A stretch of 64,000 nt of DNA, taken from the IMG/VR virus record IMGVR_UViG_2778261375_000003; one strand, given 5' to 3'. Every line of letters begins with the position of its first letter. Position 1 is the stretch's first letter. The position numbers and the translations under genes were made by a program. Shown here piece after piece: positions 1 through 682 of the stretch. Origin of the DNA: a virus. Lineage: Duplodnaviria; Heunggongvirae; Uroviricota; Caudoviricetes. The notes under the pieces were generated by a model. That model worked only from the letters and a program-made list of their open reading frames with translations. It did not search any database and was not told the DNA's origin.

Positions 1-26
1 GCTCTAATAAATTTATTAGTGTAATA
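1..26. promoter_or_regulatory. C1-operator-like sites, truncated by window edge (overlapping pair in opposite orientations)
   Basis: gctctaataaattt at 1-14 matches the 3' part of the 17-bp operator consensus ATTGCTCTAATAAATTT; the reverse complement of 10-26 gives a second 2-mismatch copy. Confidence 0.4.
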
Positions 27-191
27 TCGCCTCAATGAATCGTGATTTATAGAGCGATTTAGCTGTTAGCCGCGACAGGCGCGGCGGCAAGTATGGCGGG
101 GTAGTGACTCCTTCCCCCTCATGACGCCGAGTTGCCAGGTTGACCATACGCCTAAGTGGCAACACCGAAGTGCGTTACGAGCTTCCAGTTT

Positions 192-217
192 GCCCATCTT
201 CGGGTGGGCGTTTTTTT
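192..217 (+). terminator. Rho-independent terminator-like hairpin
   Basis: 7-bp stem gcccatc/ggtgggc with ttcg loop, followed by a run of 7 T. Confidence 0.5.
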
Positions 218-682
218 CAGGGTTTTCGTCATGGTTAGCGACTTTGCGGCGGTTTAGAAACTGACCATTAAAGTAAATGCAAACGATGATCTGATGATGG
301 TAGCGGCCTAAGAAGCCAGACGCCACGGGGTATGAGTCGTCCCCCGTCAAAAAATCGACCGCAGAGTGTCCCCGTCTGTGTATTAGGGAACGGGGAGGCA
401 CAACAGGTAAGGGCGCTGGTGTGATTAACCAGATGAACGAGAAGGGGCCATCTGTTGGTCAGCGTCCTTTCCTGTTGCGTCTTCTTTTCAGCGTAACAGC
501 GGTGCTTAACAGCACTTTGGGTACAGTTCCACGAATTTACGGGTATATCCCGTCATGCTGAAGGCGCTAATCACGCTGGAAGCCAGGGTTGTGCATCCCC
601 TGTTACCGAATTGCAGCCAGGGCGCGGTGCGCCGAAAAGCATACGGAGGTGGAAGCCCTCGCCGGAGACGTACCCGGCAAGT

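Follow-up and report, generated by a model that had tools for sequence, protein, structure and literature searches.

A leader related to the DicF precursor and a neighboring tmRNA-like RNA at the head of the ban operon in a P7-type phage genome

The C1 operator and the head of the ban operon

The first 3 kb of the window, by which we mean the whole 64,000-nucleotide stretch of viral DNA that was analyzed, are 97-98% identical to phages P1, P7, and JL22. In a sensitive DNA search, positions 1-330 were 98.8% identical to P7 and about 93% identical to P1, and window position 1 corresponds to position 68670 of the P1 record (AF234172). By sequence, the locus is the Op72ab/Pban element of P1, here in a P7-type genome; sequence, position, and bipartite arrangement are the same as in P1, with no substantive difference. 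The window begins 3 bp inside this bipartite C1 operator, and the -35 region is also cut off. The features of the locus are these:

1-14, plus strand: C1 operator Op72a (Oban-a), a 14/14 consensus match, at 68667-68683 of P1 and also in the P7 record
9-25, minus strand: C1 operator Op72b (Oban-b), second half of the bipartite operator, a 15/17 match, in the P1 and P7 records
22-27, plus strand: P1ban -10 hexamer TAATAT, feature 68691-68696 of the P1 record
36-61, plus strand: 5' hairpin, restricted to the P1/P7 family, from the minimum free energy fold of the predicted transcript (34-218)
69-85, plus strand: leader helix H1 (GCCGCG/CGCGGC), where homology to the long-DicF leader begins, from alignment, covariation, and fold
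85-129, plus strand: junction helix CGGC (85-88)/GCCG (126-129) around the variable hairpin H2 (98-101/114-117), from covariation
131-163, plus strand: leader helix H3 with the loop GGUUGACCAUACGCCUAAGU, with a compensatory change and 82% identity to lambdoid loci
164-191, plus strand: P1/P7-specific linker, a small hairpin (167-171/181-185) followed by CAGUUU, absent from phage D6
192-217, plus strand: 7-bp hairpin with a UUCG loop, then G and U7; left boundary of the module shared with D6, from scan, fold, and homology
222-400, plus strand: core of a tmRNA-like RNA, neighbor of the leader, with a tag frame at 279-311 (ANDDLMMVAA, then stop), from motif, frame, and covariation

The original prediction described partial C1-operator-like sites at the window start, and its coordinates proved accurate here and elsewhere in the interval. 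The C1 operator consensus is 17 bases long, and positions 1-14 (GCTCTAATAAATTT) match its final 14 bases perfectly; the minus strand at 9-25 (ATTACACTAATAAATTT) matches 15 of 17. The asymmetric 17-bp operator (ATTGCTCTAATAAATTT) is thus present at the dmt-ban junction as a bipartite pair of overlapping sites, the same as the annotated Op72ab, and Op72a overlaps both the dmt stop codon and the -35 element of P1ban. Counting every site with at most three mismatches to the 17-mer motif, we found 14 operator-like sites in the whole window, with 0.29 expected, and none of 100 shuffles reached 14. Further sites lie, for example, at 15824, 34787, and 50862. This scatter fits the dispersed regulon of C1 in P1-type phages.

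The ban operon of phage P1 is controlled by C1 and Bof. The P1 record places the bipartite operator Obanab (formerly Op72ab) at window positions -2 to 25, the end of dmt at 7, and the -35 and -10 elements of P1ban at -2 to 4 and 22-27; a predicted P2ban is also annotated. The P7 record (AF503408) also lists both operators and describes the tRNA genes as controlled by Op(ban). C1 repression of Pban rests on the annotation of these two records. From the position of the -10 hexamer, transcription would start at about 33-35. Extending the sequence upstream was proposed as a way to find the full operator and promoter. Both are indeed annotated in the P1 and P7 records, but P1ban is a poor match to the sigma-70 consensus, and a promoter scan still did not detect it with the P7 upstream flank added. 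Its assignment as a promoter therefore comes from the GenBank records.

In P1, the "dicF-like region" is followed by tRNA-Asn, tRNA-Thr, tciABC, a third tRNA, and ban. A consensus scan, which also misses P1ban, found no sigma-70-type promoter in window positions 1-3000, which makes it probable that expression of the tRNAs, tciABC, and ban further downstream needs transcription to read through the hairpin at 192-217. Since the records also place these genes under Pban, termination at the hairpin would have to be partial. The interval 1-230 had been proposed to be a separate short transcription unit, and in this respect the proposal fails, because the interval is the 5' end of the known C1-controlled ban operon. 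The idea of a repressor-controlled small RNA or leader fared better: the operators, the fold, and the reading-frame checks agree with a repressor-controlled, non-coding segment that ends at a terminator-like hairpin, and its placement upstream of the tRNA/ban region agrees with the P1 and P7 records and with homology.

Leader structure and its relation to DicF

The predicted leader folds into a series of helices. The fold of 34-218 is modestly more stable than that of shuffled sequences (z = -2.0). The 14 P1-like copies compared differ mostly in H2, and only one of 24 columns of the 5' hairpin at 36-61 varies among them. To look beyond the P1-like phages, we collected 120 viral loci with the pattern of the H3 loop, which gave 62 distinct leader sequences. 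Their consensus comprises H1, a 4-bp junction helix enclosing the variable H2, and a 10-bp interrupted H3. In this structure 97.9% of cells are paired, vs 31-57% when the partners are slid, and double changes occupy nine cells, vs 1.6 in shuffles; none of 500 shuffles reached the observed score. The junction helix changes from UA to CG on both sides in three sequences, H3 carries a compensatory UA-to-CG change in five of 25 sequences, and the window itself has two compensatory changes, UA to CG in the junction helix and UA to CG in H3. This covariation rests on few lineages because the collecting pattern fixes most of the H3 loop. For the same reason, the invariance of the loop GGUUGACCAUACGCCUAAGU (138-156) in the collected lambdoid and P1-type copies is partly imposed, 18 of its positions having been fixed by the pattern.

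H2 is present with at least five distinct stem sequences (CGGGG/CCCCG, CUGGG/CCCAG, CUGGGGC/GCUCCAG, CCAGGUG/CACCUGG, and GGGGU/ACCCC), all of which fold as a hairpin. Its loop retains a pyrimidine-rich UCCU(U/C) motif, CUCCUU in the window. This CUCCUU in the H2 loop (98-117) resembles an anti-Shine-Dalgarno sequence and is retained although the stem sequence changes. RNA or protein could bind to either the H2 loop or the H3 loop. Separately, in a search for targets within the window, the best candidate for pairing was at positions 49049-49061, perfectly complementary over 13 nt to positions 182-194, which span the end of the linker and the 5' side of the hairpin. We rejected this site as a target: it is some 220 nt into a 349-aa ORF, not near a start codon, and chance would produce about 0.3 matches of this kind.

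The base pairing also bears on whether the interval is translated. As originally described, it contains only tiny ORFs: those overlapping 1-230 are all at most 111 aa long, and a Pfam search of the three longest gave no match. A small protein, if one is encoded, could come from the 47-aa ORF at 121-264, for example, or from ORFs on the minus strand; phage JL22 has annotated hypothetical proteins, gp73 and gp74, here. However, the T-run after the hairpin is 6, 7, or 8 nt long among P1-like phages and is spanned by every ORF that crosses the hairpin, and these ORFs also span a 3-nt indel region in H2. Reading frames are thus broken between P1, P7, and JL22, with none conserved, and substitutions track base pairing rather than codon structure. 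We give a protein product next to no credence. Public records contain hypothetical-protein CDSs over the leader and hairpin, the tmRNA-like RNA, and DicF (1672-1824 and 1919-2059 in phage JL22, locus L002, and 3082-3237 in locus L003); these are probably spurious calls over RNA genes.

What the leader resembles is the precursor of DicF. Window positions 70-167 are about 82% identical to lambdoid phages over 98 nt (E = 2e-17) and match 4430 of 5426 complete E. coli genomes (~80%). In phage mEp460_ev081 and in the K-12 prophage Qin, the homolog of 70-167 lies between ydfC-like genes and dicB, directly upstream of genuine DicF. According to a study of DicF (PMC10448788), two species end at one terminator, a 53-nt RNA whose 5' end is made by RNase E and a 190-nt RNA whose 5' end is made by RNase III, and this RNase III- and RNase E-dependent processing of long DicF is known for K-12 only. 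At 82% identity, with compensatory changes in three helices, positions from about 58 to 167 correspond to the structured 5' portion of long DicF, the 190-nt RNA of Qin/lambdoid dicBF operons (Faubladier 1990, as cited in PMC10448788). Counting 190 nt back from the K-12 terminator places the long-DicF 5' end about 17 nt upstream of the start of homology. By sequence, H1, the junction with H2, and H3 are homologous to the first ~100-137 nt of long DicF.

Total length is also similar. From the probable P1ban start at about 34 to the U-run at 217, the P1/P7 RNA would measure about 184 nt, compared with the 190 nt described for long DicF. Because the homology precedes DicF and the lengths are so close, we interpret the P1/P7 leader as the counterpart of the precursor part of long DicF. 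Like long DicF, the P1/P7 RNA would end at an intrinsic terminator inside a repressor-controlled early operon, where read-through is needed for the downstream genes. Two differences stand out. The 5' end of the P1/P7 RNA would be a primary start at Pban, whereas that of long DicF is an RNase III cut, and the 3' 53 nt of long DicF, which hold the anti-ftsZ and xylR seeds, are replaced in P1/P7 by the 28-nt linker and a different hairpin. A third difference is that in P1/P7 some 1.4 kb of RNA genes come before the conserved trailer.

The P1 record labels 68791-68892 (window 122-223) "dicF-like region", a label implying that induction yields a true antisense RNA of the DicF type, which would block translation of ftsZ. 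Several features of the locus mirror DicF. Within an early operon under repressor control, it comes after the conserved leader and ends at an intrinsic-terminator-like element, and the motif CAGUUU is common to the P1/P7 linker, DicF, and DicF variants. The downstream tciA/B/C are moreover annotated as possible cell-division inhibitors. However, DicF itself is absent. In a four-way alignment including mEp460 and K-12 Qin, similarity stops about 25-30 nt before the first base of DicF, and the 28-nt linker at 164-191 occupies the position where lambdoid phages carry it. The Rfam DicF model (RF00039) gave no match in 1-3000 at E ≤ 1 or in 1-680 at E ≤ 10. A lenient search of Rfam as a whole returned nothing credible in 1-217; the matches to RyhB, CcsR1, Ysr49, and nuoG were far below their gathering scores. 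DicF variants keep AGUUU(U/C)..CUCC, complementary to the ftsZ ribosome-binding site GGAGAGAAACU and in one variant perfectly so over 11 nt, but P1 and P7 keep only AGUUU. RNAduplex pairing of the P1/P7 RNA with ftsZ (-80 to +60) was no better than that of mononucleotide-shuffled controls (z = +1.1 and -0.08). This test is crude, permits long loops, and gives canonical DicF itself only z = -1, so our judgment leans mainly on direct inspection of the seed. Because the P1/P7 leader lacks the anti-ftsZ sequence, a DicF-like block of ftsZ is not expected, and we regard a genuine DicF at this locus as improbable. The label is imprecise: the DicF-precursor leader is what is homologous.

Returning to the leader as a DicF-precursor counterpart, what follows it differs among phages. 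Across the 120 loci, the leader precedes 34 distinct terminator-ended cassettes, among them canonical DicF, several DicF variants, and the P1/P7 type. Right behind DicF, Qin and lambdoid phages carry sequence (in Qin, ..GUGAUGCGGUGAAUGCGGCUGAGCGCACGCGG..CACCUGGAGGCACC..) with homology to window positions 1608-1730, a segment directly upstream of tciA with a partial match to the Rfam STnc100 model (39 bits vs a gathering score of 47). Since the Qin sequence that follows DicF matches this segment, P1 and P7 appear to carry about 1.4 kb of RNA genes in the place of DicF. In sequence terms, they look like a dicBF-type layout of leader, DicF, and trailer in which DicF has been replaced by RNA genes.

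The hairpin at 192-217 and the RNA module behind it

A U-run straight after a stable GC-rich stem is the classic signature of an intrinsic terminator. The original prediction placed such a terminator at 192-217, and the element is there: the terminator scan found a stem from 191/192 to 209/210 followed by T7, that is, a GC-rich stem-loop directly before a U-tract, as expected of a Rho-independent terminator. The 7-bp stem with its UUCG loop (GCCCAUC-UUCG-GGUGGGC, 192-209) has a folding energy of -12.8 kcal/mol (z = -4.6), equalled by none of 200 shuffles. A U tract of 6-8 follows in every P1-, P7-, and D6-type copy seen. A search of the literature for transcript-end data on P1 and P7 found none and turned up only gene-level RNA-seq and CRISPRi.

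The same hairpin marks a module boundary. P1-like phage D6 shares window positions 189-330, and its sequence upstream of 189 is unrelated; Cronobacter and Klebsiella phages, otherwise unrelated, share 222-325. In other phages, the core GUUUUCG... comes after a long stem whose 3' arm reads ..AGUGCUCUUUCC, AGUGCCCUAUCC, or UGUGCUCAAAC. These arms align with GGUGGGCGUUUUUUUC of P1, the paired arm co-varies (GGGCAUU vs GCCCAUC), and there is no U-run. Long stems of the form ACAACAGGUAAGRGCAUU...RGUGCUCUUWCCGUUGUG also bracket several modules further into the window. By sequence comparison, the P1/P7/D6 hairpin is a minimal version of this cassette-boundary stem, with a U tract. Because the homologous stem outside the P1 group has no U-run, termination may be a secondary property. 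In D6 (locus L125, about 2400-2500), a different long hairpin (AGAAAGAAGCCGACU...AGUCGGCUUCUUUCU) lies directly before the shared one, replacing the DicF-type leader. That different hairpin, together with an extra tRNA-Ser in the D6 array, shows modular exchange at this site.

These comparisons raise the question of whether the hairpin is a terminator at all. It may instead be mainly a structural or processing stem of the tmRNA-like module, with 34-191 serving as a 5' UTR or processing platform within a single long precursor RNA and no discrete short RNA being made. That the D6 homology begins only at 189 fits this view, as does the compensated stem (GGGCAUU/AGUGCCC vs GCCCAUC/GGUGGGC) that precedes the GUUUUCG core, with no U-run, in Cronobacter, Klebsiella, and other phages. 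A comparable intervening hairpin also precedes the coding piece in phage permuted tmRNA genes recognized by ARAGORN, and all downstream genes require read-through. However, every P1-, P7-, and D6-type copy seen has the U-run after its stem, and the DicF terminator likewise lies inside an operon and yields both terminated and read-through RNAs (PMC10448788). A purely structural role is possible but, on balance, rather unlikely. Termination of the upstream DNA methyltransferase gene, dmt, with no function for the leader itself, is a much weaker candidate. It is compatible with our main explanation; dmt ends at window position 7, and no other terminator occurs before 192-217. Yet it leaves the conservation and covariation of 58-167 in unrelated phages without dmt unexplained, and in D6 the hairpin travels with the downstream module behind pmgS, not dmt. 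We consider this role very improbable. The hairpin is a recombination and module boundary that probably acts as a leaky terminator or attenuator.

Immediately behind the hairpin, positions 222-400 align to the Rfam tmRNA_permuted model at 24.1 bits, below its gathering score of 47. The segment contains a resume motif, AAAGUAAAU, followed by GCA AAC GAU GAU CUG AUG AUG GUA GCG GCC UAA with no in-frame start codon; a tag reading frame with a resume codon and without a start codon is the arrangement of a tmRNA. The 17-nt motif AAAGUAAAU occurs in many viral contigs with permuted tmRNA genes recognized by ARAGORN, and a second scan found about 140 loci of the enterobacterial-phage type. The tmRNA-like loci occur in P1/P7/D6-like phages, T1-like phages (Cronobacter CS01), ~157-kb Klebsiella phages, and other enterobacterial phages. 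Their tag frame has 24 DNA variants, always of ten codons and a stop, that encode 16 peptides with the consensus A-N-[DE]-[DE]-x-[FMVY]-L-[AM]-[AV]-A before the stop. Variation is greatest at third codon positions, and the other frames have stops in 20-22 of the 24 variants. Seven base pairs show compensatory changes, including the helix around the stop codon. Judged by these sequence patterns, 222-400 is a real, conserved RNA related to the coding piece of tmRNA.

The closest known relatives are the permuted (two-piece) tmRNA genes of phages. Like the 222-400 module, they have the resume-codon motif AAAGUAAAUGCAAACGA, a tag of ten codons whose last residues are AA or VA, and a hairpin ahead of the coding piece. 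The module differs in that it has no adjacent T-arm, acceptor stem, or CCA at 222-400, so the tRNA-like domain of a tmRNA is not found there, and it falls below recognition by ARAGORN and the Rfam gathering score; none of the tmRNA-like loci was called by ARAGORN. In some lineages, a near-consensus promoter abuts the core, which leaves no room for a 5' acceptor strand in those lineages. The RNA is unannotated in the P1, P7, and D6 records, and exhaustive tmRNA surveys contain no such phage genes (PMC4131195; PMC11915505).

Two scattered, degenerate pieces further into the window resemble parts of a tRNA-like domain. At 1081-1104, GGGGCUUGGCUUAAAUGCAUCGAG resembles a tmRNA 5' acceptor strand with a D-loop analogue, and at 1566-1592, GGGUUCAUAUCCC-AAUCUA-CAGGUCC-ACCA resembles a T-arm, a 3' acceptor strand, and CCA; within the latter, CAGGUCCACCA is identical to the corresponding sequence of recognized phage permuted tmRNAs. 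GGGCUUG (1082-1088) pairs at 7/7 positions with CAGGUCC-ACCA (1582-1592), G3:U70 included, but chance alone would give about 1.3 7-mers of this kind in 2.6 kb, so a coincidental match is plausible. The T-arm of the 1566-1592 piece has only 3 bp and is followed by a 6-nt spacer, and most family members are without any 3' piece.

Different RNA pieces in this part of the window are enclosed by repeated long stems (ACAACAGGUAAGRGC...GYUCUUWCCGUUGUG) at 401-478, 838-917, 1056-1127, and 1545-1605, which alternate with spacer units (GUGRUGAAUGCGCAGGCUGAUGCGC...AUCAGCACCGGYCAYCAC) at about 918-1055 and 1340-1450. The same stem and spacer flanks occur in T1-like and lambdoid phage contigs, which suggests that these phages have in common a cassette or processing system for their RNA genes. 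Inside one of the stems, at 853-910, lies a T-arm-like sequence (GAGGGUUCGAAUCCCUAC) that neither ARAGORN nor the Rfam tRNA model calls as a tRNA.

A wider reading of the locus joins these elements: the hairpin would be the first element of an unannotated, tmRNA-derived family of phage RNAs (from about 192, or 222, to 400), this RNA and the tRNA array would have replaced DicF in P1 and P7, and the leader with its leaky hairpin would gate a trans-translation device. We put this forward tentatively, as something less than an even prospect.

The reading that we favor, and consider reasonably likely, is that the C1-repressed ban operon begins here: the interval supplies its promoter-operator and its 5' leader, which is non-coding, is a counterpart of the DicF precursor, and ends at a leaky hairpin. 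Once C1 leaves Op72ab, RNA polymerase with sigma-70 would initiate at P1ban, near window position 34, and make a structured RNA consisting of the 5' hairpin, H1, the junction with H2, and H3. It would then pass the 28-nt P1-specific linker and reach the strong UUCG hairpin and U7. A fraction of transcripts would end there as an RNA of about 184 nt, and the remainder would continue through the tmRNA-like RNA, tRNA-Asn, tRNA-Thr, the structured modules, tciABC, the third tRNA, and ban. The boundary-type stem would have gained its U-run in the P1/D6 lineage, and this acquisition makes a partial terminator or attenuator, tuning entry into the RNA genes and ban, the most likely role of the hairpin. 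Leaky terminators and attenuators in operon leaders, and small RNAs defined by terminators within operons, have the same GC-rich hairpin and U-run between promoter and genes. The P1/P7 leader differs from attenuators in that we identified in it no alternative antiterminator structure and no ligand- or protein-sensing element.

Implications for P1-type phages

The operator, the promoter, and a "dicF-like region" already stand in the P1 record. What is new is that the locus resembles the DicF-precursor leader rather than DicF, that an anti-ftsZ function is not expected, and that the hairpin is a boundary of recombination and of modules, where it probably works as a leaky terminator. A 20-year-old annotation is thereby corrected: P1 and P7 carry a DicF-precursor leader, not DicF, and inhibition of ftsZ by P1 through this locus should not be assumed. 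In a CRISPRi screen, the region from dmt through ban was non-essential and dispensable for plaque formation (PMC10695390), so any role of the leader region would be accessory.

The DicF leader emerges as a conserved, structured, and portable module, found in about 80% of complete E. coli genomes. Because interchangeable terminator-ended cassettes follow it, we argue that the leader may have a function of its own, in processing, stability, or protein binding. In P1 and P7, it would form the primary 5' end of a transcript under a well-understood repressor and may therefore offer a clean system in which to study that function. The larger potential value of the locus lies in the tmRNA-like RNA, a family that has gone unrecognized in well-studied phages. 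If the wider reading is true, a C1-controlled leader and a leaky hairpin would gate a phage device that, after induction, disrupts host trans-translation or takes its place.
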